Assembly: GCF_012964435.1 (NCBI RefSeq)
Contig: NZ_DTTX01000090.1
Direction: 5' to 3' (one strand)
Origin: Mesonia sp.
Lineage (GTDB): Bacteria > Bacteroidota > Bacteroidia > Flavobacteriales > Flavobacteriaceae
DNA: 64,000 nt
The position numbers and the translations under genes are program-made. The stretch's first letter is position 1; each line of letters opens with the position of its first letter. The notes below the pieces were generated by a model. The model did not search any database. It saw nothing but the letters and a program-made list of their open reading frames with translations, and was not told the DNA's origin. Below, piece by piece: positions 1,367 through 27,645 of the stretch.

Positions 1367-4300
1367 ATGAGCATAAAATTAGAAGAAAAAAGGAAATGGT
1401 TTTCTTTTAGATTTTCAACTTCTTGGCAATTAATGTTTGTCTTTTTTTGTTTTAGTTTCTTTTACCATCCAACTCAAAGTTTTGCCTCGACAATCCAGCA
1501 ACAGGATCAAGAACTAGAAATTAAGGGAACCGTTACCGACGATCAGGGTTTGCCTCTACCGGGTGTAAATGTTATTGAAAAAGGGACCTCTAACGGAACC
1601 ATGACCGATTTTGATGGGCTTTATACCCTAAGTGTCTCTTCTGCAGATGCGGTTTTGGTTTATTCTAGTGTAGGATTTAGCAATCAAGAAGTGTTGGTTG
1701 GTGATCAACGCAACATTGATGTAAATATGGAAACCTCTGTAGCCGCTTTAGATGAAGTGGTTGTTGTGGGATATGGTGCTACCACTAAGCGTGATGTTAC
1801 CGGAGCGGTGGCAACTATTTCTGAAGAAGACTTTAACGATGGAGCCATTACCAATCCGTTACAGCAAATCTCGGGAAAAGCACCCGGAGTTAATATTAGT
1901 CAACAAGGAAGTGAACCGGGATCTTCGCCTAGCGTAAGAATTCGAGGGATTACTTCACTTATTGGTGGTAATGATCCTTTGGTAGTGGTAGATGGTGTAC
2001 AGGGAAATATGGATTTACTCAATCAAATTCCTCCTCAAGAAATTAAATCGATTGATATTTTAAAAGACGCTTCAGCCACTGCCGTTTACGGTTCACGTGG
2101 CGCACCCGGGGTAATTATTGTGACTACGAAGACCAATAAAAAGGGAAGTTCTAGTATAGAATATTCTTCTACCGCTTCTATTGATGTTTTATCTAATAAA
2201 TTAGAGGTGTTGAGTGCAGATCAATGGTGGGAACAAGCCCAACGTTATGGTGTTACCGCTTTAGCTAATCATGGTGCTAATACCGATTGGTACGATATTT
2301 TAACCGAAACCGGTTATACGCAAAATCACACGCTTTCTTTTGGTTCAGCAAGTAACAATTTTAGTTATCGAGGTTCGGTAAGTGCTATTTTGCAAGATGG
2401 AGTTGTAATTAATTCTAATAATGAGAAGTATATCGCAAGACTTTCCGCGACTCAAAAAGCATTGGATGATCGATTAACGATTACGATGAATATAAATACC
2501 GGTATTTTACAAACCACCAATAGTATTCAAAGTATTGGTAATGCAGCTTTCACTTCAAATTTAATTACCAATTCTTACTTTATGCGCCCTACCGATCCGG
2601 TTTTTGATACCGATGGGAGTTATTATACCGACCCTAACGTGTTTGAGTACCTTAACCCCTATGCGGTTGCGCAAACTACTGTTGATGAACGAGAGAATAA
2701 TAACCTCTTTGTGAGCTTAGATACCGATTTAGACATCTACGACGGACTTAGCTTAGGCTGGTTTGGGAGTTGGAGAAAAACCAATAATACCATTGGTTTC
2801 TTTTTACCGGTAGAATCTACCGACGCGAATGCTATTAATCAAGATGGTTTTGCTAACATTAATAACAGTAATCAAGATGAGAAGTTAACCAATGTGAGCT
2901 TAACTTATAAAAATACCTTTGGTGTACATCAAGTCGATGCGCTTGCTCTATACGAATGGCAACAACAAACCTATCAAGGTAATTATGCTCAAGCTCGAGG
3001 TTTTTTTAATAACGAAACCACTTATCATGCTTTGCAAGGAGGAGATTTATCTGATGTGAGAACCGGAGATATTTCCTCCTATAAAAACGATCGAAGTTTA
3101 GTTTCCTTTTTAGGAAGACTTAATTATACTTTATTAGATAAGTATTTATTAACGGTAAGTTACCGTAGAGACGGCTCTTCTGTATTCGGGGAGAATAACA
3201 AGTGGGGGAATTTCCCGGCAGCCTCTGTAGGGTGGAGAATAGATGAAGAAGATTTTATGCAGGATGGTATTTTTGATCAGTTAAAATTACGAGGAGGTTT
3301 TGGGATCACGGGTAATCAGCAAGGATTATTCCCTCAACAATCTTTATCGCTAGTGAGTCCTGGCGGGATCACTTATTTTGGAGGTGAAGAGATTAGAAAT
3401 TTTCAAATTTCGCAAAATTCAAATGAAGACTTAAAATGGGAACGTAAAAAGCAAACCAATATCGGAGTTGATTTTAGTTTGTTTGAACGTAGATTAAGCG
3501 GTTCTATTGATGCCTTTACGGCGACCACCGATGACCTTCTTTTTAATTATACCGTGCCGCAGCCACCATTCCCATACAATACTATTGCTGCTAATGTAGG
3601 AAGTATTCGCAACCGTGGGCTTGAGTTTGCCCTTAGTTATCAGGTTATCAATACTGAAGATCTATCCTTTACTATGGCCGGTAATCTATCTCTACTCGAT
3701 AATGAAGTATTAAATTTAAGCGGAAGCATTAACGGTGTCGATTTAAATACGAATTACATTCCTTGGGGATCTAACTCATTTTTAATTGAAGGAGAAGCTA
3801 TAGGTACCTATTCTATCTTACAGCACGAAGGGATAGATAATGTAGGTGCAGAGGTTGTACAAGATGTGAATGGCGATGGTATTATCGATCAAGGAACTAG
3901 AAGCCCAGATCGTGTACAGCAAGGATCAGCACTACCTACTTACAACTTTGCCATTAATCCTACATTTAGCTATAAGAATTTCGATTTTTCTATGTTATGG
4001 AGAGGTTCCGGAGGTAATAAAATCTATAATGGCCTTCGTAAAAGCATGAGTTTGATGGAAAGTATAGGGAATCAAAATGTACTGCAGAGTGCTGTAGATT
4101 TAGACCTTTATACGTCACAATATGCTTCTAATCTTTGGTTGGAAGATGGTGATTTTGTTCGTCTAGAAAATGTGACAGCAGGGTATAATATTCCGATGAA
4201 TGATTCTAAATATATTAAAAATTTAAGGATATCTGTGACCGGTAATAACCTATGGTTAATTACCGATTATTCCGGAGTAGATCCTGAACTTAATTTTAGT

Positions 4301-4384
4301 GGAGCCAATGGTTTTGGAGGAGATTTTGGGATCTATCCAAGAACCACTAGTGTAGCCTTAGGTTTACAAGTAAAATTTAAATAA
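1367..4384 (+). CDS. susC: SusC-like TonB-dependent outer-membrane transporter
   Basis: 1005 aa. Signal peptide, CarboxypepD_reg-like segment (IKGTVTDDQGLPLPGVNVIEKGTSNGTMTDFDGLY), plug motifs (LDEVVVVGYG; DILKDASATAVYGSRGAPGVIIVTTK) and a long beta-barrel. A SusD-like gene follows directly. Confidence 0.9.
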   Translation: MSIKLEEKRKWFSFRFSTSWQLMFVFFCFSFFYHPTQSFASTIQQQDQELEIKGTVTDDQGLPLPGVNVIEKGTSNGTMTDFDGLYTLSVSSADAVLVYSSVGFSNQEVLVGDQRNIDVNMETSVAALDEVVVVGYGATTKRDVTGAVATISEEDFNDGAITNPLQQISGKAPGVNISQQGSEPGSSPSVRIRGITSLIGGNDPLVVVDGVQGNMDLLNQIPPQEIKSIDILKDASATAVYGSRGAPGVIIVTTKTNKKGSSSIEYSSTASIDVLSNKLEVLSADQWWEQAQRYGVTALANHGANTDWYDILTETGYTQNHTLSFGSASNNFSYRGSVSAILQDGVVINSNNEKYIARLSATQKALDDRLTITMNINTGILQTTNSIQSIGNAAFTSNLITNSYFMRPTDPVFDTDGSYYTDPNVFEYLNPYAVAQTTVDERENNNLFVSLDTDLDIYDGLSLGWFGSWRKTNNTIGFFLPVESTDANAINQDGFANINNSNQDEKLTNVSLTYKNTFGVHQVDALALYEWQQQTYQGNYAQARGFFNNETTYHALQGGDLSDVRTGDISSYKNDRSLVSFLGRLNYTLLDKYLLTVSYRRDGSSVFGENNKWGNFPAASVGWRIDEEDFMQDGIFDQLKLRGGFGITGNQQGLFPQQSLSLVSPGGITYFGGEEIRNFQISQNSNEDLKWERKKQTNIGVDFSLFERRLSGSIDAFTATTDDLLFNYTVPQPPFPYNTIAANVGSIRNRGLEFALSYQVINTEDLSFTMAGNLSLLDNEVLNLSGSINGVDLNTNYIPWGSNSFLIEGEAIGTYSILQHEGIDNVGAEVVQDVNGDGIIDQGTRSPDRVQQGSALPTYNFAINPTFSYKNFDFSMLWRGSGGNKIYNGLRKSMSLMESIGNQNVLQSAVDLDLYTSQYASNLWLEDGDFVRLENVTAGYNIPMNDSKYIKNLRISVTGNNLWLITDYSGVDPELNFSGANGFGGDFGIYPRTTSVALGLQVKFK

Positions 4385-5890
4385 ATGTATATGAAAAAAT
4401 ATAACTATATCATCTTAATCGCAGTATTTGCCGGTATGTTTTTAAATTCTTGTACCGGTGATGTTGAAGAAAATGTATATGATAAATATCAAGCTAACGA
4501 GTTTTACTCAACCCCAGAAGGAGCCGATGTAGCTTTAGCGGCAGTTTATGCACAGGTAGCCGGTAATTGGGGGGGCGTAGGTTATGCAGGTGCCGATAAT
4601 GGTTGGTATGATTTAAACTGTATGACTGCCGATGAGCAAGTTATACCGCATCGTAACGATGGTGCTTGGCAATTAGATTTTGCTAGACTTTACCAACATG
4701 AATGGTTACCCTCAGACCTTATTGTGAATAATACGTGGAATTGGCTTTATCAGGCTATTTTTAGTGCCAATTTAGCGGTGGAGCAATTAGAGAATGCTGA
4801 AGCAGCCCAGGCAAAAATAGCAGAGGCCAAAACCTTACGAGCTTTCTTTTATTATTTATTAATGGATGATTATGGGAATATCCCATTTTATACCGAAAAT
4901 AATGTTACCGTCGAAGATTTACCACAAGCTTCACGCCAAGAGGTTTTTGAATTTATTGTTACTGAGTTGGAAGAAAATGTTCCTGAATTATCAGAAACAA
5001 AAGGAGGTGAATACTATGGCCGTTTTAATCGATGGGCCGGGTATGCATTATTAGCTAAGGTCTATTTAAATGCAGAAGTTTATACCGGAACAGCCCAATG
5101 GCAAGCTTGTATTGATGCGATTGAACAATTAGAAAACGGAGGGTTTTCTCTACATCCCGGCAGTGCTAACGAAGCCAGCCCAATAGGATACCAATACTAC
5201 GAGCTTTTTGGAGATCGTCTTCCTGAAGATGAAACAATTTTAGCCATGTTTGCAACTGTGAATATTGTTTCTAGAAATGTGTATACCATCAGAAGTTTTA
5301 GTGGGCCTCACGCACAAGAACTATTTGGGGTAAGCGGCTGGAATGGTACCATTGTACCTGAAGCTTTTTACAATTCTTATGATGATAACGATATTAGAAA
5401 AGCCCAGTTTTTAGTAGGAGATCAACCCGGAGGTGTTACCTATACGGCAGCAGTAAGTAATCTAGATAATCCGGGAGCTAATCCTTTTGCAGGGGTTCGC
5501 AATCAAAAGTTTTACCCGGCAACTCCCTTAGATGGAGGTGGAGCGTCTAACGATTTTCCTATCTATCGTTATGCCGATTTTATGTTGATGAAAGCTGAAT
5601 GTTTGGTGAGGCTCGGCAACGCAGGGGCTGCAAAACCTTTAGTAGATGCCGTTCGAGAACGCGCAGGATTGTCTGCTTTAGAAAGCAACCCCAGCCTAGA
5701 AGCTATTTATAACGAACGTGGGTTTGAATTAAATTGGGAAGGTCACCGCCGTCAAGATATGATTCGATTTGGTACTTTTTTAGAAGCTAATGAATTCAGA
5801 GGAGTTTCAGGCGAATATCGAGAATTATTCCCAATTCCTACTTCTGCTTTAGATGCTAATCCTAACCTAGTTCAAAACCCCGGTTACTAA
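4385..5890 (+). CDS. susD: SusD/RagB-family glycan-binding lipoprotein
   Basis: 501 aa. Lipoprotein signal (MFLNSC). Abuts the susC stop. SusD-like C-terminal region (YRYADFMLMKAECLVRLGN; ERGFELNWEGHRRQDMIRFG). ATG at 4391 is an alternative start. Confidence 0.9.
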   Translation: MYMKKYNYIILIAVFAGMFLNSCTGDVEENVYDKYQANEFYSTPEGADVALAAVYAQVAGNWGGVGYAGADNGWYDLNCMTADEQVIPHRNDGAWQLDFARLYQHEWLPSDLIVNNTWNWLYQAIFSANLAVEQLENAEAAQAKIAEAKTLRAFFYYLLMDDYGNIPFYTENNVTVEDLPQASRQEVFEFIVTELEENVPELSETKGGEYYGRFNRWAGYALLAKVYLNAEVYTGTAQWQACIDAIEQLENGGFSLHPGSANEASPIGYQYYELFGDRLPEDETILAMFATVNIVSRNVYTIRSFSGPHAQELFGVSGWNGTIVPEAFYNSYDDNDIRKAQFLVGDQPGGVTYTAAVSNLDNPGANPFAGVRNQKFYPATPLDGGGASNDFPIYRYADFMLMKAECLVRLGNAGAAKPLVDAVRERAGLSALESNPSLEAIYNERGFELNWEGHRRQDMIRFGTFLEANEFRGVSGEYRELFPIPTSALDANPNLVQNPGY

Positions 5891-5901
5891 AATTGAAAAC
5901 G

Positions 5902-6966
5902 ATGAAAAAAGTATATGTATTTATGATATTGATAAGTGTGGTATTATTTTCCACCTTGTCTTGTACTGAAAACGATGATACGTTAACGACACTTGAAGCT
6001 GTGCGTTTTAATTCAAAACCTCAAGTTACCCCAGAAGTAGTTCAGCTTACGCAAGAGGAACAAGCGCAACCTGCGATCAATATTTCTTGGGAAGAAGTTC
6101 ATTTCCCTATTTCAGAAGCTCCGGTAGCTTATAGCGTACAGTTTGATGTTGTTTCTGACACTATTGGAGAAAATGCTTGGGAGAGTGCAATTACTAAAAC
6201 CGTAGGAGAAGATGTATTAAGTACAGAAGTTAGCGTTGAAGAATTAAACACTATTGCTTTAGATTTAGGTCTATTGCCAGCAGAAACCGCTACGATGGCT
6301 GTGAGAATAAGAGCATTTGTAGATCGAGAAGTTTTCTCCAACGCGACCGCGTTCGAAGTCACTCCCTACGAGGTGGTTGTAGGTAATAACCTGCTTTACG
6401 TACCGGGTGCTTATCAAGGATGGGATCCTGCGAGTGCGGCTACTTTAAAAGAGACTGCAACTCCCGGAGTATTTGTAGGATACCTAACTTTTGAAGCTCC
6501 TGCTGCATTAGAATTTAAGTTTACCACTGCACCCAATTGGGATGATAATTATGGGGGAGATGGTAATGGAAATTTAGTGTTTGAAGGGAATAATGTTTCA
6601 GTTCCCAATATAGGCTCTTATCAAATTACCGTTAATATGAATACTATGACCTGGATGGCAGAATCGTATTCTTGGGGGATTATCGGAACCGCAACACCAG
6701 GAGGTTGGGATGCCGATACCGATATGAGTTATAACTACCAACAAGATTATTGGGAGTTTACCGGAGGTTTAGTTGCTGGAGCTTTAAAATTTCGATTGAA
6801 TGACCAATGGAACGTTAATTACGGTTCCCAGAACAGCACCGATTTTATCGCTTACCTAGATGATCCCGGAGCTCACGACGTTGCTGCAGCAGGAAACTAT
6901 CATGTCACCTTTCAGATAGATCCTACCGACCCTAATATCGCATATTATACCGTAGAATTACAATAA
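5902..6966 (+). CDS. SusE/SusF-like outer-membrane starch-binding lipoprotein
   Basis: Lipoprotein signal (LFSTLSC). Sits directly after susD. Has repeated W/Y-rich beta-sandwich-like segments (GAYQGWDP; TPGGWDAD). The ORF track starts at TTG 5893; ATG 5902 is preferred. Confidence 0.65.
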   Translation: MKKVYVFMILISVVLFSTLSCTENDDTLTTLEAVRFNSKPQVTPEVVQLTQEEQAQPAINISWEEVHFPISEAPVAYSVQFDVVSDTIGENAWESAITKTVGEDVLSTEVSVEELNTIALDLGLLPAETATMAVRIRAFVDREVFSNATAFEVTPYEVVVGNNLLYVPGAYQGWDPASAATLKETATPGVFVGYLTFEAPAALEFKFTTAPNWDDNYGGDGNGNLVFEGNNVSVPNIGSYQITVNMNTMTWMAESYSWGIIGTATPGGWDADTDMSYNYQQDYWEFTGGLVAGALKFRLNDQWNVNYGSQNSTDFIAYLDDPGAHDVAAAGNYHVTFQIDPTDPNIAYYTVELQ

Positions 6967-6976
6967 ATAAAACACA

Positions 6977-10536
<3,560 letters not shown>

Positions 10537-14831: not shown

Positions 14832-15494
14832 TTAAATAAGTCCGATATCTTTACTTAAAGCAATGAGTTGATAGGTGTTTTTAGCGCCTAAATGAATTTT
14901 AAGTTTACTCACTCGTTTTTCGATAGAACTTAAACTATTGGGAGCGATATTTTTTGATTTTAGTTGTTTGCTGATGGCCTCTTGGCTAAAACCTTCAGCA
15001 AGGTTATTGAGTAAAAAAATATCATAATCTTCAATTTCAAAATCTGTCGTACGATCTAAGATCTTTTCGATCTGTGGAGAAATATAGCTTTCATTTTTAA
15101 ATGTTGAAATTATTGCAGCTTCTAATTCTACCAAGCCATTACGATCTTTACAAACATAGGCTTCGACACCCAATTTTAGTAATTGTTCGATGCTGGCTTT
15201 GCGATCTTCAATAGAATAAGCGATAATTTTAAGTTCGGGGTGCTCTGCTTTTAACCGCTTAATTATTTCTTTACCAGATTTGATGTATTGCTCGCGATAA
15301 TCGGGTTTAAAAGATAGATCTGTAATTAAAAGTTGATAAGGGACATTTTCTTGATGCGCCTTTTTAATTTTCATATATGCCTCTTCGCAGTATTGTACTT
15401 GGTGTATTTCTGTGATTTGTAATTTTTTACCTAATTGTAAAACACTTTCATTTATACTTCCTAAATCTTCAGCAATAATAATTTTCTCGTACAT
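14832..15494 (-). CDS. LuxR/NarL-family response regulator
   Basis: REC domain (phospho-acceptor context LLITDLSF) plus a C-terminal LuxR-type HTH (SLSSIEKRVSKLKIHLGAKNTYQLIA). Lies 3 nt after the kinase gene. Confidence 0.85.
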   Translation of the reverse strand: MYEKIIIAEDLGSINESVLQLGKKLQITEIHQVQYCEEAYMKIKKAHQENVPYQLLITDLSFKPDYREQYIKSGKEIIKRLKAEHPELKIIAYSIEDRKASIEQLLKLGVEAYVCKDRNGLVELEAAIISTFKNESYISPQIEKILDRTTDFEIEDYDIFLLNNLAEGFSQEAISKQLKSKNIAPNSLSSIEKRVSKLKIHLGAKNTYQLIALSKDIGLI

Positions 15495-15497
15495 CGT

Positions 15498-17132
15498 TTA
15501 GCAAATTAATTGAGCTTTAAAGCCTTTATTGATTTCAGAATCAAAAATAATCTTTCCTTGTATAGCCTGCATACGGGATTCCGTATTTACTAAACCATTT
15601 CTCTTTTTTAGCTCGCTGCCTTTACCATTATCGGTATAATTAATCACTAGATTTTTTCCTTTTTGCTGAAATGATAGTAACACTAAAGAAGCTTCGCTGT
15701 GTTTCTTCATATTGGTAAAAAGCTCTTGTAAAACCCTGTAAAGTGTTGCTTTTTTTAGTGTTGAAGTTGTTTGCCAATCGATGCCGGTAAGGTTTTTTAC
15801 AATAATTTTTGTGTGGCTTGTCTGGTAGTGACTTACCAATTCTTTTAGCAGGTCAGAAAAATTTTCATCTTCCGGAAAGCTATTATTTTCTCGAGAAATA
15901 TTTCTTGAGGTTTGGTAAATTTCTTCTAAACGATGAAGGGTATCTTCTTTTTGGTAGGTAGCATTTTGTAGTTTCGTCATTAAATAATACACATCGTTCG
16001 CTACTTCGTCATGAACTTTTTTAGCAATTCTCGATTCTGTATTAAAAACCTGTAGGATCTTTTCTTTACGGTGCTTTATTTTTAAATACCCAAAAATAGC
16101 AATCGCTATGAGTATAACCAATAACCCAATTATTTGGTAAAATACTTTTTTTTGAGCTTCCGCTTCTTTTTCCAGCTGAAATAAATTTGCTTCTTGTTCC
16201 GATTTTTCAAGTTGATATTTCAATGCCAAATAATTACTTTCAGCATTTTGGTTGAGTTGCGTAAGGCTGTCTTTTACTGTTAGGTAATTCTTTGCTATTG
16301 GGATATCTGCCATACGTAATAACTGTTGAAGGGCACTTTCTTTATATTTTAAATTTTTGAATTGCTCGGCGATGCTTTGTGCTTTTATAAAATAGGCTTT
16401 GGCGAGTTGCTTTTGTTGCTGAAGTTGATAATATTCACCTAAATGAATGTAGCTGGTAAATAAGCCTTCTTGTAATTGTAATTTTTCTCTGAGCTCAAGA
16501 GCAGATCGCATTTCGCTTAAGGCTCGTTGAGGTTGCGAAACCCGAAACAGATAGCCTGAATTATCTCTGGCTCGAGCTAAATTTTCTAGATTATCTGTTT
16601 GTTCGCTTAAAGCGATGGCTTTTGTATAGTAATCTAAGGCAGTAGAATCGTTTTGTTGATCGCGTGCGATATTTCCGAGGTTATTGTAAAGGATCGCTTT
16701 TTGTTTAGCAGAAGCATTCGAAACAGCTTTTTTATAAAAATATGAAGCTTGTTTAAGCTTGCCGGTTTCTTTATATAATTTCCCCAGGTGATTGTATAAG
16801 GTGTTTTGGTATGCTTTTTTAGTCGAAGAGGAAGCAGTATTTTCTAAAACCTGAAGCGCCTTTGTTGCTGTTGCCTCACTCTCTTGTAAAACCCCTAATT
16901 TTTGTTGAATTCTGGCAATATAGATGAGGTTGTAAACCTCTGAAAGCTCTGATTGATCGTTCTTTATTTTTGCATTAAAATACCTAAAAGCTTCTAATAA
17001 TTCTTGAGGCTTAGCCGAGTTATTTACCTTGCTAACATAATTGTTGAGACTATCTGAAGGCGTAGTGTTCTGACCATTAAAATTTTTACTGAAAAATAGC
17101 AGTAATAGCGATATAAGTAGGGAATATCTCAT
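15498..17132 (-). CDS. sensor histidine kinase with extracytoplasmic TPR domain (HisKA_3 type)
   Basis: Signal peptide, TPR-like repeats, coiled coil, single TM (IIGLLVILIAIAIFGYL), H-box (KKVHDEVANDVYYL) and an HATPase_c region (NYTDNGKG). Confidence 0.8.
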   Translation of the reverse strand: MRYSLLISLLLLFFSKNFNGQNTTPSDSLNNYVSKVNNSAKPQELLEAFRYFNAKIKNDQSELSEVYNLIYIARIQQKLGVLQESEATATKALQVLENTASSSTKKAYQNTLYNHLGKLYKETGKLKQASYFYKKAVSNASAKQKAILYNNLGNIARDQQNDSTALDYYTKAIALSEQTDNLENLARARDNSGYLFRVSQPQRALSEMRSALELREKLQLQEGLFTSYIHLGEYYQLQQQKQLAKAYFIKAQSIAEQFKNLKYKESALQQLLRMADIPIAKNYLTVKDSLTQLNQNAESNYLALKYQLEKSEQEANLFQLEKEAEAQKKVFYQIIGLLVILIAIAIFGYLKIKHRKEKILQVFNTESRIAKKVHDEVANDVYYLMTKLQNATYQKEDTLHRLEEIYQTSRNISRENNSFPEDENFSDLLKELVSHYQTSHTKIIVKNLTGIDWQTTSTLKKATLYRVLQELFTNMKKHSEASLVLLSFQQKGKNLVINYTDNGKGSELKKRNGLVNTESRMQAIQGKIIFDSEINKGFKAQLIC

Positions 17133-17159: not shown

Positions 17160-18032
17160 TTAATTTGGCTCTATATGAATGGTTATATGCGAAATTTCTG
17201 GAATTTGATTTTGAATATGATCTTGAAGCTCATGCGCTAAAAGATGACCTTCTTTTACGGTAATATTTGCATTTACAATTGCGTGTAATTCTACTAAATA
17301 TTTCATCCCGGCTTTTCGAACAAAACATTTTTCGGTTGCAATTATTCCGTTTACCGAGCTTGAGGTATCGCGAATCTCTTCTACTAGGTCATCATAAATA
17401 TGTTCATCCATAATTTCTCCCAGCGCAGGTCTAAAGATTAAATAGGCATTATATAAAATGAAAGCCGAAGCGCAAAGTGCAGCCCAATCATCTGCAGTCT
17501 CAAAACCTTTACCAAAAATTAAGGCAATTGAAATACCTATAAAAGCGGTAAGAGAAGTGATAGCATCGCTACGGTGATGCCAAGCATCTGCTTTAAGCGA
17601 AGAACTATTGGTTTTACTACTTTTATTTAACACATACCGGTAAGAAGCCTCTTTCCATAAAATAATGAATAGAAGGACTATTAGCGTCCAAGCTTCAGGT
17701 ATTTTGTGTGGCGTTCTTATATTAATAATACTTTCATAAGCAATAATCGTTGCAGAGGTTACCAGAAAAGCAACTACCAAAAATGTGATTAGCGGTTCTA
17801 TTCTAGAATGCCCGTAAGGATGATTTTTATCTGGTGGGCGTTGAGCATATTTAAAGCCTAATAGAACAAAGAATGAAGAAAATATGTCTGCAGTAGACTC
17901 AATTCCATCTGCAATCAGGGCGTAAGAATTACCTAAAAACCCGGAACCTAATTTAAGTATTGCTAAAAGTGTATTTCCAATAATACTAAAATAGGTAGTT
18001 TTAATCGCAGAAGACTCTTGAGATAATTCCAT
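17160..18032 (-). CDS. cation diffusion facilitator (CDF) metal efflux transporter
   Basis: Six TM helices. Metal-site motifs LIADGIESTADI (TM2) and AWHHRSDAITS (TM5). C-terminal cytoplasmic domain present. Start at MELSQESS is preferred over the ORF-track start at 18092. Confidence 0.85.
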   Translation of the reverse strand: MELSQESSAIKTTYFSIIGNTLLAILKLGSGFLGNSYALIADGIESTADIFSSFFVLLGFKYAQRPPDKNHPYGHSRIEPLITFLVVAFLVTSATIIAYESIINIRTPHKIPEAWTLIVLLFIILWKEASYRYVLNKSSKTNSSSLKADAWHHRSDAITSLTAFIGISIALIFGKGFETADDWAALCASAFILYNAYLIFRPALGEIMDEHIYDDLVEEIRDTSSSVNGIIATEKCFVRKAGMKYLVELHAIVNANITVKEGHLLAHELQDHIQNQIPEISHITIHIEPN

Positions 18033-18177
18033 GTTATATTCAAGCTTACAAATAAATGATAAATCTAAGTAAATTTTATTAACCCATTGCAATTATTCAA
18101 ATTCGTGAGCAGTATTGGGTGTTTCGAGTAGCTAAATTGAAAGATTTAATGCAATTATTGTAATGAGCATATTGTTA

Positions 18178-19284: not shown

Positions 19285-19411
19285 AGAGAGAAGTTTTTTT
19301 GAAAAAATAGTATTCAAATATAATGTTAACTCGTTAGACAATCCTAATCGAATTTATTCACATCCTACAAATTCTTTTACCTTTGAAGTGCACCAAGAAA
19401 ATTTACGCTTT

Positions 19412-22400
19412 ATGCGCCTTCAAAACGCTACTCAGAATAACCTTAAAAATGTTTCTTTAAGCCTCCCTGAAAACCAGTTGATCGTGATTACCGGGCTTTC
19501 CGGTTCCGGTAAGTCTTCGCTAGCGATGGGTACGATCGCTAACGAAGGTTATCGTTATTTTTTAGAAAGTTTACCGGCTTACCATCAACAAAACAGTATT
19601 GCCATTCCTACGGCAGAAGTCGATGCGATTAGCGGTTTACCACCGGTAGTGAAGGTAGAACAATCTAAACGTTTTCAGTCCATCAAAGCCACTTTTGGTA
19701 CGTTGTCTGAACTCGCGCCTATTTTTAGAGTGTTATTTGCACGTTATGCCGGTAAAGAGAAGATGAGTAAATCGTTATTTTCATTTAATCATCCTCAAGG
19801 GGCTTGTGCTCAATGTCGCGGAATTGGAGAGGAAGAATATATCGATATCAACAAACTAATTGGTGACGAAAATAAAACCCTGCGTGAAGGTGCGATTGTC
19901 ACCACTTTACCTAATGGTTATATTGTGTATTCGCAAGTTACCGTTGAAGAACTCAATAAAGTTTGCCAAGCACACGGTTTTCACGTCGATATGCCTTGGA
20001 AAGACTTAAGCGAAGAACAAAAAAATGTAATTCTCTACGGCAGTGAACGCCTTCAGGTGTTTTATGGCAAACACAGCATCGAATCGCGTTTGCGTTGGCA
20101 AGGTTTTAAAGCGAAACCGCGAGAAGAAGGCTATTACAAAGGTGTGATGCCTATTATGGAAAATATTCTTCGGCTCGATCGTAACAAAAGTATTTTGCGT
20201 TTTGTGAGTTCACGAATCTGCCCCAACTGTGGCGGAGCCAGAATTAAACCGGAACACTTGGCATTTCAGTGGCACGGATTGAATTTTCAAGAATGGATGC
20301 AACTTCCGTTAACCGAACTGTATGAGCGCTTGCAAACGTTAGAACTTTCAGCAGGCGAACAGGTTTTGGTCGATAAAATGAATACCCAATTGTTTGATTT
20401 TATTCGATTGGGAATGGAGCATTACTGTTTAGCTACGCCGAGTACTGAAATTTCTTCTGGCGACGGCCAACGTATTAAGCTCATCAAGCAAGTGAACAGT
20501 AGCTTGCAAGGCATTTTGTATGTGTTCGACGAACCTTCGATTGGTCTTTCTGAAGCCTATCAAGAACATTTGCTTCATATTTTACGCCGACTCATCCGCA
20601 ACGGAAATACCGTGATGGTGGTTGAGCACGATCTCAAATTTATTCGATCGGCAGATTGGGTGGTCGAGTTAGGTCCTGGAGCGGGAATTGAAGGTGGAGA
20701 GGTTTTGTTTAATGGTCAATTAAAAGATTTTTTAACTGCGGAACATTTAACTACTCCAACTCGAAAGGCTTTTGAGCGTGATCGTTTGACTGTTGAAAAA
20801 GTTAAAGCGGTACAGCGAAAAGATTTTCAACCTCAGGTGGAAGCTTTGCATGTGATCAGTAAAAAAACGAAAGCGGTTACCGAGAAAATAATTTCTTTTT
20901 GTAAGAACAATGATTTTCAATTGCATAAGGTCGACGATCAACCTATCGGGAAAACTCCTCGAAGCAACCCTGCGACTTATACCGGTTTGGCCGATAAGAT
21001 TCGGGATTTGTTGGCAAAAACTACTGCTGCCAAAGAAGCGAAGCTCACTAAAAGTGCCTTTTCATTTAATAATAAAGCCGGGCGATGCCCACATTGTGAA
21101 GGCGCCGGCGTGATCACCTTATCGATGAGTATGCTGGGAACGGTGAATCAAACTTGTCCGCATTGTTTAGGAAAACGCTTTCAGCCTGAAGTTTTAGCAG
21201 TCACTTGGAACCAAAAAAACATTGCCGATATTTATGAGCTGAGCATCGATGAAGCACTCGATTTCTTTTCCGAAGAAAAAAAATTAGCAGCCATTTTATC
21301 GTTAATGCATCAATTGGGCTTGGGTTACCTAAAGCTTGGGCAATCCTCGAACACTTTATCGGGAGGAGAAGCGCAACGTATTAAACTCACAAAGCACTTT
21401 GCCAAATCGGCAAAGAAAACCTTGTTGTGGTTAGAAGAACCCAGTATTGGTTTGCATCAGCAAAATGTAGCCCACTTACTGGTAGCCTTGCAACAATTAA
21501 AAGCGAAAACAGCCGGAATTATTTGTGTGGAGAATCATCAACTTTTTCAGCAAGCGGCCGATGTTTGGCTCGATAACGCTGAAGCTATTCCTTATGAAGA
21601 ACCTGCACTTCCTGCGGTTCAGCAGCAAGATGTTATTTCGGTAAGAGGTGCGCGAACCCACGCTCTCAAAGATTTGAATGTTGAATTTCCGAAGCAACAA
21701 TTATCGGTGGTGACCGGTATTTCAGGTTCAGGTAAATCGTCACTGGTGATCGATACCTTGCACGGTTATGGCTTGCAAGAAATGACCAAGCAATTTTCAA
21801 GTTACGAGCAATCTCGCGTCGGCGTTAATTTTCAGCTAGAAGTGGAACATATCGAAGGTTTAACGCCTAGTATTTGCATTAGCCGAAAAGAGAAAAATTT
21901 TACCGAACGCTCCGATCTTGCTAAGCAAACCGATATTGATAAAAGTTTACGTTTTGCCTTTTCGAGAAAAGCACAGTATGAAGGAAAAGATTGGACGGCG
22001 AGTCACTTTTCTAATCAGCACGAATTAGGTAAATGTGTGGTTTGCGATGGCTTGGGAGAAGAGCAGTTGCCTGACCCGCAAAAAGTGGTGATCGATGCCA
22101 AAAAAAGCATTTCCGAAGGAGTTTTTACCCATAACAAAGCGCTGGCGTATTATGGGCAACCCGACAGTCAATATATGGCGGTGTTGAAGGAAGTAGGAAA
22201 GGCGAATGGCTTCGATTTGCTAACGCCTTTTGAAGATTTAACGCCTGCGCAACAAGAACTCATTTTTAATGGAATTCCCGATAAAAAGTGGAAAGCTACT
22301 TGGGAATTTAAAACCAAAACCCGAACCGGAACCCAAGAATTGCAGATGGTTTGGGAAGGATTGTTTACCTATTTGCGTGATGAATACCTAAAAACGCGAA

Positions 22401-23899
22401 AGAACAAACACATAAAAGCTTTGCAGGCTTTACTTTCTGCACAAACTTGTAGTCATTGTCAAGGTAGCGGCTTGAAGCCTGAGCGATTGGAAATTGAAAT
22501 TGGCGGAAAGTCGATGCACGATTTAAAATCGATGAATTTTGAAGAATTTGCTGAATTTTTAAATGAAACTTCTTCTTTCAGTAAGATTGATAAAGATCTA
22601 GTGAAGCGTTTAACCGAACATTTAAAAACCACTCTTTTACGTGCGCAGCAATTGCATATCGATTATTTACAGTTGAACCGAAAATCGAAAACGCTAAGTG
22701 GCGGTGAGCAGCAACGTGTCGCGTTGATCAAGCAATTAAATAGTCCGTTGCAAGGCGTTACTTATTTGTTAGATGAACCTTCGGCCGGTTTATCGCAAGC
22801 TAATATTCCCGATTTAATTCGGTTATTGAAAGAATTGGTAGCGAAAGGAAATACGGTGATCGTGATCGAACACCATAAAGATATCATCTTGGCTGCCGAT
22901 CGATTGTACGAGATTGGCCCAAAAGCCGGAAGTTTAGGTGGGGAGTTGATGTTTGAAGGGAGTCCGCAAGCATATTTGAAAACTGAACATTGTCATCCAT
23001 TTTTACAGCAAGCTTCTGAGGCGATTCAGCTTCAACCGGGAACAAAACAAATTCAGCTTCAGCAATTAGAAAAACACAGTTTAAAGAAAGAACACCTCGC
23101 CATTCCTGTGGGCGGAATTACCGCCATTTCCGGAAAATCGGGCGTGGGAAAAACCACGTTGGTCAAAGAAATTTTAATCCCGAGTATTGAAAGAGGAAAG
23201 CCGGTGAATTGTACGCAAATTGAATTTTCTACTAGTTATGCCGGCGTTGATTATTTTGAACCGAAAAAGTTACGCGCGCATCACAAAACCTTGTTGGTCG
23301 ATTATTTAGATCTCCTGAAAGTGATTACCAAAGTATTTGCCGATAATAGCGAAAAACCGTCTCGCTATTTTTCTTATAAAACTAAGAGCAGTCAATGCAC
23401 GAACTGCAAAGGTAAAGGATTTGTAGAAACCAGTTTAGATGTGGTGGCTAATGCTGTGGAAGTTTGTGAAGTTTGCGAAGGTAAGCGTTATCAAGCTGAA
23501 GTTTTAGCTGTGAAGGTCGAAGCGAAAAGTATTGCCGATGTTCTTGTGTTTAGCATTTCAGCATTAAAAGATTGGCTGCAAAACTTTGCTGTTAAATCTA
23601 CTACAGAAAAATTCCTTCAGCAGCTCATCGAAATTGGCTTAGGACATTTAGCGATCGATCAAGCAGTTACTTCACTCTCTTCCGGAGAAAAACAGCGTTT
23701 GTTATTGCTAAATTGGCTTCAGCAACCTGAAGAAAATCAGTTGTATATTTTAGATGAACCGAGTACCGGTTTGCATTATGCCGATATCGATTTGTTGTTC
23801 AGTATTCTTCAGCAACTCAGTACAACTAATGATTTGCTGGTGATCGATCACAATCCTTATTTGTTAGAAAAAATAGGTGTTGGGGTAGTGTTGAGATAA
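19412..23899 (+). CDS. tandem-duplicated UvrA-like ABC ATPase (about 1500 aa, four nucleotide-binding modules)
   Basis: Two UvrA-like halves. Half 1: [73 protein letters not shown]. Half 2 (from about aa 748): [69 protein letters not shown]. The ORF track starts at GTG 19388; ATG 19412 ([14 protein letters not shown]) is preferred. Confidence 0.85.
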
Positions 23900-24378: not shown

Positions 24379-27300
24379 TTAATTAAAAATAATTTTAGAA
24401 ACTCCGTAATCGGTGTGCTCACTATTTACTTTTAAGAAATATATACCTGCATTAAGATTAGGAGAAATAAGGAGGTCGTTTCTTCCTTCAACTAATTTTT
24501 TACTTACAGTATAAACTCTTTTCCCATTAATATTGTATAAACTTATAGTGGCAGATGTTTCTTTTTCACTGTATAATAAACAATTTACATCACCTTGTGT
24601 TGGGTTAGGGTAGGCAATAAACTGGTTTTTTAAGTTTAGCAGTAAATCTTCATAACCATTAGGTGCGTTTTTAGTGAACTCTACATTTTTAATTGTTAGA
24701 TCTAGATCGTTAGTACCTGCTTCTACGGGTAAAAAGGTAAAAGTTAGCATAGTTAGATCTTCTGCGGAAAGCGTTTTGTTGGTTCCTGTTGAAGAAAAGA
24801 AATTATACGGTAGGTAATAGGTTTTCTCGTCTTCTCCAACTTGGATGTTTGCTTTATATTGCTCTTCCCAATTTTCGATAGAAGATTTTAATAAGCCAAT
24901 TTCTAATAATCCGCTACCGGTAGCTGTAAATGAAATATAGTTGTAGTTGCTATAATCTGCCGGTAAATTACCGGGAAGTAAAGATTTATAAAGTGTAAGG
25001 TAATCGTACTCACTATGCGCTTTTAGCTCTACATTTCTGTGTACGGCTAATCGATCTTCCTCATAAACTCGATCAAAATTATTAGAAATAGTGTATTGCT
25101 CGATAGTGGTGTAGGTAGCATCGTAATCTAAGCCCCAGTTCCCGTCGGCGTGATAAAATACATCTTGAATTTCTCCGTTTACAAAAATTCTTCCGTCGTA
25201 CTCATAACCATCTTTAATATCTATAGTTACTTGTTGAGTTTTTTCAGATCTAAAAGGATTGTAACGAAGTGCAAAACCATTGGTTTCACTATATACTTCA
25301 TCCATAAAAATCTCTATACTTTCTCCTTGTTGAAGGCTTTTAAGTTTTAAGTTAAGCAAGGTATTCTCTCTAGTAATTTTAGCGGCATACGTACTAGGAA
25401 GTTTTTTAGTCTCATCTTGAATGATCGGGCGATAGTTGTTAATGTTGTTTAAAATATCATTAACTAACTGAATCGTACTTTCAGGTTTTGTAGACCAAAC
25501 TTGAAAGTTATATACCTCCTGAGAATTAAAATATCCGTTAACATACCAGTTGCTTTGTAGACTATAATTTTCTTCATTTTCATTTTTACCGATCGCAAAT
25601 GAAATAGCATACTCTGTCACATCATTTCGTTGCTTAATAGCTTGCATTAAAAAATGATATCCGTTGATCTCTAAAGATTGAATCTTTAAAATTTCTGCGC
25701 CTTTAAGTCGGTCACAAGAAGCTTTCGTGTGGTTGTATACATCATCAATAGTTTTTATACCTAAAACCACTGCTTTTGTTTTTCCTTCCACAGAAAAATC
25801 TACACTTAAAACTTCATTAGCAATGGTGTAATCTAAAATATCTGTAGGAGAAGATATGTTTGCAACATTACCCGGAGTTAATTCTTCCGGGAACATTTCC
25901 AATAAGGTTAGACCGTTTTGTGATCTAGCAGTCATTGATGAGCTTAATTCGCTTTTATTAAAGACTTCAGCATTCTCAAGCTTGAATTTTGTGGAAATAC
26001 TTCTTTTTTTACGCTGAATATATTGTTTAGAAACAGCATCTCCTAAACTTTCACTTTCTAAACCTCCGTCATTACCGGTATTAACCTCGTCAGACTCTAT
26101 GGTAATAGGAATGATCGTAGAATTCTCACAAGTATTATTATCTGTTGTGTGAACTGTAACTTCATAGTAACCTGCTGTTGTGAAGTCGAATGCTACGGTA
26201 CTTTGATTTGGAAACAAATTACTTGCTCCGTTAGAAACCTCCCAATAAAAATTACTGAATTGATCACTGTTGGTTAACGTAAATTCTTTCGTTACTACTC
26301 CAGAACCACTAGCTATCGTTGTTTCAGAAACAATTGCATCGATCGTTGGAAAAACTTCAACTTGAATGCTTTCTGTGTCTGAGCCATAAGCATTGGTTGT
26401 AGTTAGTGTAACTGTATAAATACCAGGAGCGCTATAGGTTTTTACCGGGCACATTGATGTACTGCTCGTACCATCACCAAAATCCCAATGATAAGAAAAT
26501 GGAGCTTCAGGTTGGTTGGTGCTTCCTGTATGAGAAGTATTATCAAAAATGAATTCGTGATCTGCGAAACATAGTTGTGCACTATTAATGTTGAAATCTG
26601 CAGTTGGTGGTACTCCTGCAACCGGTGCGCAACCAGATAAGGACGGTTGAAAAACTGCATAGTGCATTTCGCCTCCGCCGTGTACAAGTGACTTTGCAAT
26701 AACTTGACCTTCTATGTTAGATTGGTTAACTGTTTTAACGATATTTGCAAATGGCGCATAAACAGTTCCTTCAATGGTAGAATTTCCTTGAATATTTAAC
26801 GTTGTTGTATTATAGAAGTTATACAATATAAACGGACAGTTTTGAAAACCAATACCGGCTTGATTCCATACATTCCAATTGAAAGTTCCCGGAGCATCAA
26901 CATTAATAACTAAAATTTTGTTAGCACTTGGCTGCTGATTATAGGTGAAAACCTGTACGTTATTCATATCTGAACCAGTAACATTCAGGTAATTAATGCC
27001 GTTTTGTAAGTTGATCTTTACTTGATTTGGTAGATTAGTTGAGGGTATTGGTTGTCCGTTTGGGTTGGTAAGTTGAGCATTACCGGTACATTGAGAAATG
27101 CTAGCCGATAATGTTCTCATTTCTTGAAATGCACTTGCAAAATCTATAAGGTCACTTTCAAATACCGGATTGTTATTTACTCCAACATTTAATTGGTTTG
27201 AATTTGCCTGTAACATAATTCTTGGGGAAGAATTGTAGTTGCTGTTAGGTGTAATTCTAATGGGCGAAGCTGCATTGTTTTGATCGTAATACCAAACGTG

Positions 27301-27645
27301 TGAATTTTGGCTATCGCCAATCTTTATATAAGTGTTTTGGTTAACTTGAAGCGCATTGCCAGAATTGTAGTTAACTTTTCCGCCAACTAAAAGTCCAATT
27401 CTGTTGCCGCCAACTTCAAAATCACCCGTATAATTGGTTGCTACTTGATAATTTCCTTGAAGATTCAAGTTTTTACCAATAGCCATAGGTCCGTCTGTTT
27501 CATTGGTAATTAATGTTGCATTATTTTCAATGAAAACATTGAAATTTTCAGAAGGAAGTGTTGGGCTTTGCGCTAAACAGAAAGAGTTAAACGCTAAAAA
27601 TAAAGCTAAAAGGATATAGCTGTTAGAACTGTATTTTTGTTTCAT
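24379..27645 (-). CDS. large secreted adhesin-like protein with PKD domain(s) and T9SS C-terminal sorting domain
   Basis: 1088 aa with a signal peptide. The N-terminal segment resembles the choice-of-anchor-A domain (FNVFIENNATLITNETDGPMAIGKNLNLQGNY). PKD signature YHWDFGDGTSS. C-terminal AYPNPTQGDVN...LYNINGKRVY...GIYFLKV is typical of a type-A T9SS CTD. Confidence 0.8.
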   Translation of the reverse strand: MKQKYSSNSYILLALFLAFNSFCLAQSPTLPSENFNVFIENNATLITNETDGPMAIGKNLNLQGNYQVATNYTGDFEVGGNRIGLLVGGKVNYNSGNALQVNQNTYIKIGDSQNSHVWYYDQNNAASPIRITPNSNYNSSPRIMLQANSNQLNVGVNNNPVFESDLIDFASAFQEMRTLSASISQCTGNAQLTNPNGQPIPSTNLPNQVKINLQNGINYLNVTGSDMNNVQVFTYNQQPSANKILVINVDAPGTFNWNVWNQAGIGFQNCPFILYNFYNTTTLNIQGNSTIEGTVYAPFANIVKTVNQSNIEGQVIAKSLVHGGGEMHYAVFQPSLSGCAPVAGVPPTADFNINSAQLCFADHEFIFDNTSHTGSTNQPEAPFSYHWDFGDGTSSTSMCPVKTYSAPGIYTVTLTTTNAYGSDTESIQVEVFPTIDAIVSETTIASGSGVVTKEFTLTNSDQFSNFYWEVSNGASNLFPNQSTVAFDFTTAGYYEVTVHTTDNNTCENSTIIPITIESDEVNTGNDGGLESESLGDAVSKQYIQRKKRSISTKFKLENAEVFNKSELSSSMTARSQNGLTLLEMFPEELTPGNVANISSPTDILDYTIANEVLSVDFSVEGKTKAVVLGIKTIDDVYNHTKASCDRLKGAEILKIQSLEINGYHFLMQAIKQRNDVTEYAISFAIGKNENEENYSLQSNWYVNGYFNSQEVYNFQVWSTKPESTIQLVNDILNNINNYRPIIQDETKKLPSTYAAKITRENTLLNLKLKSLQQGESIEIFMDEVYSETNGFALRYNPFRSEKTQQVTIDIKDGYEYDGRIFVNGEIQDVFYHADGNWGLDYDATYTTIEQYTISNNFDRVYEEDRLAVHRNVELKAHSEYDYLTLYKSLLPGNLPADYSNYNYISFTATGSGLLEIGLLKSSIENWEEQYKANIQVGEDEKTYYLPYNFFSSTGTNKTLSAEDLTMLTFTFLPVEAGTNDLDLTIKNVEFTKNAPNGYEDLLLNLKNQFIAYPNPTQGDVNCLLYSEKETSATISLYNINGKRVYTVSKKLVEGRNDLLISPNLNAGIYFLKVNSEHTDYGVSKIIFN

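Follow-up and report, generated by a model that had tools for sequence, protein, structure and literature searches.

A single-chain tandem UvrA paralog of Mesonia with two differentiated class II-like halves

Among the closest described systems are the class II UvrA proteins, set apart (PMC9328131, PMC9241694, citing Marszalkowska 2013) as UvrA forms without the first zinc finger and the UvrB-binding domain. One of them, Ecm16, confers echinomycin resistance without UvrA, UvrB, UvrC, and UvrD, and its ATPase activity is required (PMC9328131). For class I UvrA, composite ATP sites have been defined as proximal and distal and a role has been described for an adenine-stacking Arg (Case et al., PMC6486640); both distal sites are essential for nucleotide excision repair (NER) (PMC6486640). 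Here, we describe a gene on a 64,000-nucleotide stretch of Mesonia sp. DNA (contig NZ_DTTX01000090.1 of assembly GCF_012964435.1), called the window below, whose product joins two UvrA-like units in one polypeptide. We regard its classification and architecture as a tandem pair of class II-type UvrA units as highly probable.

Tandem UvrAs are said to have been called “class III” by Goosen and Moolenaar in 2008. In the literature searched, we found no description of “class III,” duplicated, or tandem UvrAs. In agreement with an earlier interpretation of this DNA made from its letters alone (the sequence-only reading), this literature also contained no functional study of such proteins. The family is widespread. 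The architecture itself is already known to databases as a recurrent type, in line with the statement of that reading that duplicated UvrA genes have been noted in comparative surveys.

Anatomy and ATP sites of the tandem protein

A single open reading frame (ORF) of 1503 codons runs from a GTG at position 19388 to position 23899 on the plus strand without any internal stop, and all UvrA motifs that the sequence-only reading had listed as two successive series are present in the order it gave. Alignment of amino acids (aa) 1-747 with aa 748-1503 of this ORF extends end to end at 29% identity (E 4e-89). Each half is homologous to UvrA proteins of known structure (phmmer against the PDB, E 1e-98 to 1e-144) and carries one Pfam UvrA_DNA-bind domain (PF17755), the insertion domain. 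By tblastn, either half matches only this gene within the window, which contains no second UvrA-like gene; a canonical uvrA is expected elsewhere in the genome. The start of the frame had to be revised. Because orthologs of 1494-1500 aa begin at the Met equivalent to aa 9 of the ORF and a –7 promoter box implies a transcript that begins no earlier than the GTG, the most likely start codon, judged by this comparison, is the ATG at 19412 (MRLQNA...), which gives a coding sequence (CDS) of 19412-23899 and a protein of 1495 aa.

Lengths and identities were taken from at least 120 orthologs (the best matches listed) and conservation from 121 aligned sequences. The best 120 orthologs, from Mesonia, Zunongwangia, Salegentibacter, Christiangramia, Echinicola, Marivirga, and others, share 65-95% identity with the window protein, and every one has 1494-1542 aa. 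At the junction (aa 720-760), none of the 121 sequences differs in length, though the sequence of this region is among the least conserved of the protein. The ortholog of Mesonia mobilis is 95% identical and has upstream genes in common with the window. Since ortholog and junction lengths are fixed and the same intact ORF is seen in independent genomes, complete ones included, we exclude, on comparative grounds and with near certainty, that two neighboring genes were artificially joined through faulty sequencing or assembly at ~21.6 kb, where the sequence-only reading had allowed for a stop or frameshift.

To describe the domain anatomy, both halves were aligned with E. coli UvrA (class I) and with single-length class II proteins encoded on the S. 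globisporus C-1027 plasmid and on a B. cereus plasmid. Both halves lack Zn module 1 together with the UvrB-binding domain (residues ~119-262 of E. coli UvrA), and the boundaries of this deletion equal those in the two class II proteins, as the proposed class II-like architecture demands; Zn module 2 of half 1, for instance, is preceded by neither element. When the halves are aligned with class I structures, the alignments leap from residue ~115-136 to 261-281; gaps of this kind appear against UvrA of E. coli, T. maritima, G. stearothermophilus, and C. thermocellum. No such leap interrupts the alignment of either half with D. radiodurans UvrA2. The remaining hallmarks of the UvrA superfamily are kept in each half: two tandem ATP-binding cassette (ABC) nucleotide-binding domains (NBDs), the UvrA-specific insertion domain with Zn module 2, and the Zn3 hairpin. 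The four CxxC...CxxC modules that result contain 16 zinc-ligand Cys residues, every one of them invariant among the 121 family sequences. Both NBD-II modules terminate shortly beyond the H-loop strand, that of half 2 directly after it.

The composite ATP sites of the two halves are not equivalent. Three agree with the consensus: proximal site 1 (GLSGSGKSS with LSGGEAQR), proximal site 2 (GISGSGKSS with LSSGEKQR), and distal site 2 (GKSG(V/I)GKTT with LSGGE(Q/N)QR and the preceding Arg). The expected Gln is found in both proximal sites in 121 of 121 sequences. The distal site of half 1 deviates in five respects. First, the Walker A motif of NBD-II is deleted, leaving a 5-residue gap where E. 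coli has GVSGSGKS, and the segment that replaces it is poorly conserved. Second, Walker B reads LLLEEPS, with Asp changed to Glu, and the GNT motif has become KTAG, both conserved deviations. Third, the H-loop is shifted and reads (F/V)ENH rather than IEHN. Fourth, signature I has the form ISSGD(A/G)QR, in which ISSGD is at least 98% conserved. Fifth, position –5, the place of the adenine-stacking Arg, is occupied by Thr in 117 of 121 sequences; at the corresponding position of half 2, all 121 have the Arg. Because these five conserved criteria are concordant, only three ATP sites look competent, and the distal site of half 1 is, by its sequence, degenerate, a conserved non-catalytic relic.

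The sequence-only reading had proposed two complete halves with four ABC modules. Four ABC folds are present, but there are only three P-loops, and the description as complete halves does not hold. AlphaFold2 (AF2) models were obtained for two overlapping fragments of ~1200 residues from a 78-sequence alignment. In them, the pseudo-P-loop region of half 1 adopts a strand-turn-helix arrangement at a predicted local distance difference test (pLDDT) score of 84-89, and the core fold of this NBD-II appears to be retained without the nucleotide loop. All features of the gene and its protein are compiled in Table 1.

Table 1. Coordinates of the tandem UvrA gene, its promoter element, and its protein features in the window
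Feature	Position	Strand	Basis or remark
Bacteroidetes-type –7 box TACCTTTG (TAnnTTTG)	19378..19385	+	sequence match, conserved in orthologous loci
Revised CDS, tandem UvrA paralog, 1495 aa plus stop	19412..23899	+	mechanical ORF begins at GTG 19388
Half 1 (N-type protomer, aa 9-729): NBD-I, Zn2 with insertion domain, degenerate NBD-II, Zn3	19412..21574	+	phmmer against PDB, E 5.8e-144; TIGR00630, 593 bits
Half 1 Walker A GLSGSGKSS, proximal site 1, canonical	19493..19519	+	at least 98% conserved across the 121-sequence alignment
Half 1 Zn module 2 (CAQC...CPNC) around insertion domain	19805..20230	+	PF17755; Cys 100% conserved
N-half-specific insertion-domain signature, ending DRNKSILRF in the window protein	19910..20203	+	conservation across N halves
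Half 1 signature I, degenerate, ISSGDGQR in place of LSGGExQR	20450..20473	+	ISSGD at least 98% conserved
Half 1 pseudo-P-loop, NBD-II Walker A deleted	20849..20899	+	5 residues missing against GVSGSGKS in E. coli and class II
Half 1 NBD-II Q-loop and DNA-contact motif, canonical	20936..20986	+	alignments
Half 1 Zn module 3 hairpin (CPHC...CPHC)	21086..21172	+	Cys 100% conserved; aligned to E. coli C740...C766
Half 1 second signature LSGGEAQR, canonical, completes proximal site 1	21356..21379	+	alignments, conservation
Half 1 NBD-II Walker B LLWLEEPS (Asp to Glu), GNT to KTAG, shifted H-loop VENH	21422..21538	+	conserved deviations
Inter-half linker, 18 aa	21575..21628	+	mean conservation 0.51; length invariant; coil in AF2 model
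Half 2 (C-type protomer, aa 748-1503): NBD-I, Zn2 with insertion domain, NBD-II with P-loop, Zn3	21629..23896	+	phmmer against PDB, E 2.5e-120; TIGR00630, 513 bits
Half 2 Walker A GISGSGKSS (proximal site 2)	21716..21742	+	conservation
Half 2 Zn module 2 (CVVC...CSHC) and C-type insertion domain	22034..22459	+	Pfam; conserved Cys
Half 2 signature I LSGGEQQR, Arg at –5, distal site 2, canonical	22694..22717	+	conservation
Half 2 second Walker A, distal site 2	23132..23158	+	conservation, alignment
Half 2 NBD-II stretch substituting the Q-loop/DNA-contact motif	23252..23308	+	structure alignments, conservation
Half 2 Zn module 3 hairpin (CTNC...CEVC)	23396..23476	+	conserved Cys, alignment
Half 2 second signature, Walker B, H-loop VIDHN	23675..23854	+	conservation, alignment

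Relatives and origin of the two units

A HMMER scan of 1.84 billion representative sequences (clusters at 50% identity) with half 1 as the query returned 35,179 matches, and the whole family of the window protein falls into a single such cluster. Because the best 150 matches were nearly all double-length UvrA-like proteins of 1450-2340 aa, tandem UvrAs are, on this survey of sequences, a large and diverse group; they comprise more than 150 such clusters. Motif spacing divides them into short tandems (less than ~1700 aa), in which both units are class II-like, and long tandems (more than ~1750 aa), whose first unit shows class I spacing, that is, an insert of the size of the UvrB-binding domain. 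One long type is described by the model NF001885 (PRK00635, 1809 positions), on which the window protein scores 700 bits compared with a cut-off of 3054. Most tandems retain four Walker A motifs. The loss of the P-loop in half 1 is a subclade trait, since 14 of 56 short tandems lack the distal P-loop of the N half; canonical signature I is missing in 13 of these 14, as opposed to 20 of the 42 that have the P-loop.

The order of the two units is conserved. In 49 of 58 short tandems, the proteins are collinear with the window protein: half 1 best matches the N half (38-46% identity) and half 2 the C half (30-36%). A neighbor-joining tree of the split halves, rooted with E. coli UvrA as outgroup and computed without support values, unites the N halves in one clade and the C halves in another with one exception. 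The internal topologies of both clades are congruent, and single-length class II proteins fall outside either. In addition, the insertion domain of the N halves contains a signature, PNGYxxYSQVT ... GKHxLESRxKWxGxxAKPRExGxYxG ... DRNxxILRF, that is at least 80% conserved in 36 N halves sharing only 30-46% identity, and that was not found in the C halves, the class II singles, or E. coli UvrA of the aligned set. Its core GKHxxESR occurs in 50 of 56 short tandem representatives. Residues 229-243 of the signature are near-invariant and yet have AF2 pLDDT values below 50, which suggests, as far as the model can tell, a conserved flexible loop.

The collinear halves, the separate but congruent N and C clades, and the N-specific signature together indicate one old fusion and not a duplication that took place recently within the gene: two protomers, already differentiated, became in effect a covalent heterodimer. 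The sequence-only reading had described a covalently fused pseudo-dimer. It was correct with respect to a single chain of two UvrA-like units; a duplicated homodimer, by contrast, is not what we found, since the halves are old, differentiated, and non-equivalent. By these sequence comparisons, the protein is a pseudo-heterodimer.

Fragments with the N-type signature carry source names from Bacteroidota, Myxococcales, Oligoflexia, Acidobacteria/Holophagaceae, and Aminicenantes. The divergent tandem representatives, looked up by cluster, are all metagenomic sequences. A profile search for unfused N-type protomers with the N-type insertion domain returned only fragments of at most 307 aa. Relatives were also found on 920 plasmids, all of them single-length class II genes with ~32% identity; no close tandem relative was among them. 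One single-length example is the 775-aa class II UvrA-like gene at 5950-8277 of plasmid SGLP1 of S. globisporus C-1027. It belongs to the C-1027 enediyne locus, lies a few genes from the enediyne chromoprotein gene, and adjoins a cation:proton antiporter gene, a typical self-resistance context.

The taxonomic attribution of two close homologs is unexpected. A tandem UvrA from “Salegentibacter sp. R32” (RXOM01000032.1) shares 95% identity with the window protein; for orthologs from named Salegentibacter, the value is only 67-68%. None of the neighbors of the window gene was found at this locus, which suggests a mislabeled Mesonia-like genome or gene transfer. One ortholog with 68% identity is attributed to Pontixanthobacter gangjinensis (Alphaproteobacteria), although the family is otherwise restricted to Bacteroidota among the matches listed, which points to either contamination or horizontal transfer.

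Proposed activity and its alternatives

We propose that the two units of the chain, N- and C-type, fold against each other as the subunits of a UvrA2 dimer do. The single DNA groove formed in this way would have a lining of two non-equivalent insertion domains, a pair of signature II domains, and a pair of Zn3 hairpins. ATP binding and hydrolysis at the three live sites would then power a conformational “stress test” of the DNA like that reported for UvrA (PMC6486640, PMC12796330). With canonical docking of UvrB precluded, the output would differ from UvrB loading and might consist in the displacement of DNA-bound ligands or adduct-like distortions, as in Ecm16, or in a hand-over to a partner. 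The best candidate contact for such a partner would be a flexible loop of the N-type insertion domain, which is invariant and basic/aromatic. By analogy to Ecm16, we infer that the protein may sense or clear lesions or DNA-bound drugs independently of UvrB. We hold this proposal as a whole, including the intramolecular pseudo-dimer and UvrB independence, with fair confidence, and any particular substrate with much less.

Several observations weigh against this proposal. For the interface between the halves, which would resemble that of a UvrA2 dimer, a model confidence score serves only as a proxy (see below). Compared with canonical UvrA, both NBD-II modules stop ~35-45 residues early, without GPxGG...GTPE, and NBD-II of half 2 has lost the Q-loop/DNA-contact motif, which half 1 retains; because of these two losses, the distal site or the DNA contacts of half 2 may be altered as well. 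Neither of the SOS operators of Bacteroidetes, GGA-N5-TCC and CTAA-N5-TTAG (PMC8565304), was present in the proximal upstream region at any of ten loci examined, and one distant match, at –218 in Marivirga, is probably due to chance. Finally, neither a biosynthetic cluster nor an efflux pump lies near the gene, in contrast to class II genes for drug self-resistance.

The relative arrangement of the halves was assessed with the two AF2 fragments, in each of which a complete half makes up ~62-63% of the residues. The fragment aa 9-1208 has a mean pLDDT of 85.4 and a predicted TM-score (pTM) of 0.76, the fragment aa 305-1503 values of 86.8 and 0.78. Because pTM values this high with only 62-63% of the residues in a complete half imply that the partial half is confidently placed too, the models give indirect support for a fixed inter-half arrangement, as does the invariant length of the linker. 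The alternative that the chain is not folded back, so that N- and C-type protomers pair in trans in a domain-swapped dimer or higher oligomer with two DNA grooves, would be in line with the strong rearrangement of UvrA dimers with nucleotide reported in PMC12796330. It is the less likely arrangement by a wide margin of judgment, given that the tether is short (~18 aa) and of invariant length, both overlapping fragments attain a high pTM as single chains, and the strictly conserved N-then-C covalent order is most simply explained by intramolecular pairing.

The protein could also be an alternative NER damage sensor that has kept its cooperation with UvrB and UvrC and contacts UvrB at other surfaces, in place of the missing UvrB-binding domain. 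Signature domain II of class I UvrA is also part of the UvrA-UvrB interface (PMC6486640), and class II UvrA adds slightly to ultraviolet survival in double mutants of Xanthomonas and P. putida, as cited in PMC9328131. Many sources name the orthologs “excinuclease ABC subunit A,” but this name stems from summed scores of a hidden Markov model (HMM): the whole protein passes TIGR00630 (1095 bits; cut-off 729.8) because two sub-threshold halves, with 593 and 513 bits, add up. The halves likewise reach only 580 and 491 bits on NF001503 (cut-off 1147). With the UvrB-binding domain and Zn1 absent from both halves, no linkage to uvrB or uvrC at the loci compared, and Ecm16 and UvrA not being interchangeable (PMC9328131), we consider an NER sensor to be improbable. 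Annotation is inconsistent, some records giving “excinuclease ABC subunit UvrA” and others “ATP-binding cassette domain-containing protein.” Since the equivalog score is passed only by adding two sub-threshold halves, tandem proteins should not be called NER UvrA.

It is very improbable that the protein is an ABC ATPase with a non-DNA function, such as a translation- or ribosome-associated factor like ABC-F or ABCE1, or a generic NTPase. Weak similarity to ABC-F, EttA, and ABCE1 does exist in NCBIfam and Foldseek searches, but it is of the generic NBD type, with target-normalized TM-scores of at most 0.55 and E ~1e-12 compared with 1e-58 for UvrA, and the protein has kept its UvrA-specific insertion domains and its four Zn modules, all of them invariant. 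In the Foldseek search of the PDB with both fragments, the top 39 matches were all UvrA structures (E ~1e-57 to 1e-58). The best target-normalized TM-scores were to the class II protein Ecm16 (0.79-0.82, root-mean-square deviation 3.7-4.0 Å; second fragment 0.81-0.82).

A role as a MADS-like anti-phage defense component, suggested by PADLOC matches to mad3 (281 bits) and mad8 (110 bits), was rejected and has hardly any likelihood left: unrelated tandem UvrAs score higher on mad3 (398-537 bits), which marks the matches as generic UvrA-type NBD similarity, no methyltransferase, mad-like, or other defense gene lies nearby and no neighbor is conserved across genera, and the near-universal chromosomal presence across genera fits a housekeeping gene. 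The two models themselves are strongly UvrA-NBD-like, giving up to 537 (mad3) and 231 bits (mad8) with tandem UvrAs, so that any UvrA paralog will match them at the risk of a false defense annotation.

Returning to the pseudo-heterodimer that acts without UvrB, a bolder and tentative generalization, on which we would not rely, is that every short tandem, the window protein among them, is an obligately asymmetric sensor of damage or ligands and that these proteins define a DNA-surveillance pathway without UvrB. The C-type unit would run the full ATPase cycle, the N-type unit would have traded its distal ATPase for a fixed structural role, and the GKHxLESRxKWxGxxAKPRE loop would recognize a DNA feature or recruit an effector that replaces UvrB. 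Compared with the sequence-only reading and, as far as searched, with the literature, three findings are additional: the distal site of half 1 is, by its sequence, coherently dead; N- and C-type units are anciently differentiated, with an N-specific signature; and the naming as “UvrA” comes about only through summed sub-threshold halves. With exactly one distal site dead and non-equivalent insertion domains in a covalent dimer, the family amounts to a natural experiment on the roles of proximal and distal ATP sites in UvrA. A monomeric asymmetric UvrA scaffold would permit mutagenesis of one protomer, which is impossible in homodimeric UvrA.

Genomic context and comparison with known systems

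Upstream of the ATG, at a distance of 26-35 nt, a TA(C/T)CTTTG box is found in the window and at seven orthologous loci (Mesonia, Lacinutrix, Echinicola, Zunongwangia) whose upstream genes are unrelated; the Marivirga locus has the variant TACCTTTA. The box corresponds to TAnnTTTG, which we take to be the –7 consensus of Bacteroidetes promoters. Scans for σ70 promoters and terminators gave no more matches than shuffled controls, the σ70 model being uninformative for a gene of Bacteroidetes. In our proposal, an own promoter would drive this stand-alone, housekeeping-type gene.

The window gene is flanked by a divergent gene for an FGE-sulfatase-like lipoprotein and a convergent gene for an adhesin of the type IX secretion system (T9SS), with a CDF transporter gene and a two-component pair further upstream. 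Its orthologs neighbor pgi and a hypothetical gene in Echinicola, a σ/anti-σ pair and a nitrilase-family gene in Zunongwangia, and genes for a PAS histidine kinase and a START-domain protein in Marivirga. No neighbor gene is conserved across the Mesonia, Echinicola, Zunongwangia, and Marivirga loci, and neither uvrB nor uvrC is nearby at the loci compared. Assignment to the drug self-resistance type of DrrC and Ecm16 was rejected, as the neighbors in the window (FGE-sulfatase-like, CDF, two-component, and T9SS adhesin genes) do not form a biosynthetic cluster.

Some of the surrounding genes differ between close relatives. The CDF gene (Cation_efflux and ZT_dimer; 17160-18092, minus strand) lies between the FGE-sulfatase-like gene and a TPR sensor gene. 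In Mesonia mobilis DSM 19841, the latter two are only ~100 nt apart and there is no CDF match; the CDF gene is a strain-specific insertion or deletion beside the UvrA paralog. The sensor gene (15498-17132, minus strand) encodes a TPR-repeat membrane protein with a histidine-kinase-like C-terminal part that has no Pfam HATPase match at E≤1e-5. It is followed by a gene for a response-regulator receiver protein (14832-15494, minus strand), and this pair is 81-83% identical in M. mobilis. The T9SS gene converging on the UvrA paralog (24379-27645, minus strand) encodes a cargo protein of 1088 aa that combines Por_Secre_tail with PKD and ice-binding-like adhesive domains. It was not found downstream of the ortholog in RXOM01000032.1 or M. 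mobilis DSM 19841, and a third locus gave a fragment match only.

Two larger gene groups lie farther away in the window. An α-glucan polysaccharide-utilization locus (1367-10536, plus strand) comprises genes for a SusC-like TonB receptor, a SusD-like protein, a GH13 α-amylase, and a GH97 glucosidase. The region ~27700-54000 has a GC content of 0.27-0.31, compared with 0.35-0.42 elsewhere, and a strongly positive GC skew. It begins with Polysacc_synt_2, Poly_export/SLBB, a Wzc-like AAA_31 protein, and a flippase, and, on its gene content and composition, looks like a capsule or O-antigen-type island.

Compared with class II UvrA (Ecm16 of S. lasalocidi, DrrC of S. peucetius, and UvrA2 of D. radiodurans), both halves of the window protein share the layout, that is, they lack the UvrB-binding domain with Zn1 and keep Zn2, Zn3, and the insertion domain. 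Class II proteins are homodimers of single-length chains (~750-840 aa, in a class range of ~750-850 aa) with two canonical ATP sites per chain, as seen in the Streptomyces and Bacillus examples, in which Walker A occurs twice. The window protein instead is a 1495-aa chain that covalently pairs non-equivalent N- and C-type units, with three live sites as predicted from sequence, shortened C-termini of NBD-II, and an N-specific motif. Many class II genes are located in drug biosynthetic clusters, e.g., that of the enediyne C-1027, whereas the window gene has no such context.

Class I UvrA (E. coli, G. stearothermophilus, T. maritima, M. tuberculosis, and C. thermocellum) belongs to the same superfamily with the same domain order (28-32% identity in structural alignments), and its logic of proximal and distal sites applies to the window protein, too. 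The latter differs by the missing UvrB-binding domain and Zn1, by single units that stay below the equivalog score, and by one dead distal site, so that at the sequence level not every protomer has two functional ATP sites. A further likeness, by analogy, is with asymmetric ABC proteins. One degenerate site is also known from heterodimeric exporters and CFTR, and there as here one composite site appears to have lost P-loop, Walker B, H-loop, and partner signature jointly, while the others follow the consensus. Those proteins are membrane transporters with two sites; the window protein has four and is a predicted soluble, DNA-binding scaffold.

With the other short tandems (<1700 aa), the window protein shares two UvrA units in one polypeptide, collinear N-/C-type orthology, and the N-type signature, but only about a quarter of them share the loss of the P-loop in the N half. 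The window gene is an ordinary member of a large tandem UvrA family already known to databases, and this family offers a natural asymmetric scaffold for dissecting the ATP sites of UvrA.

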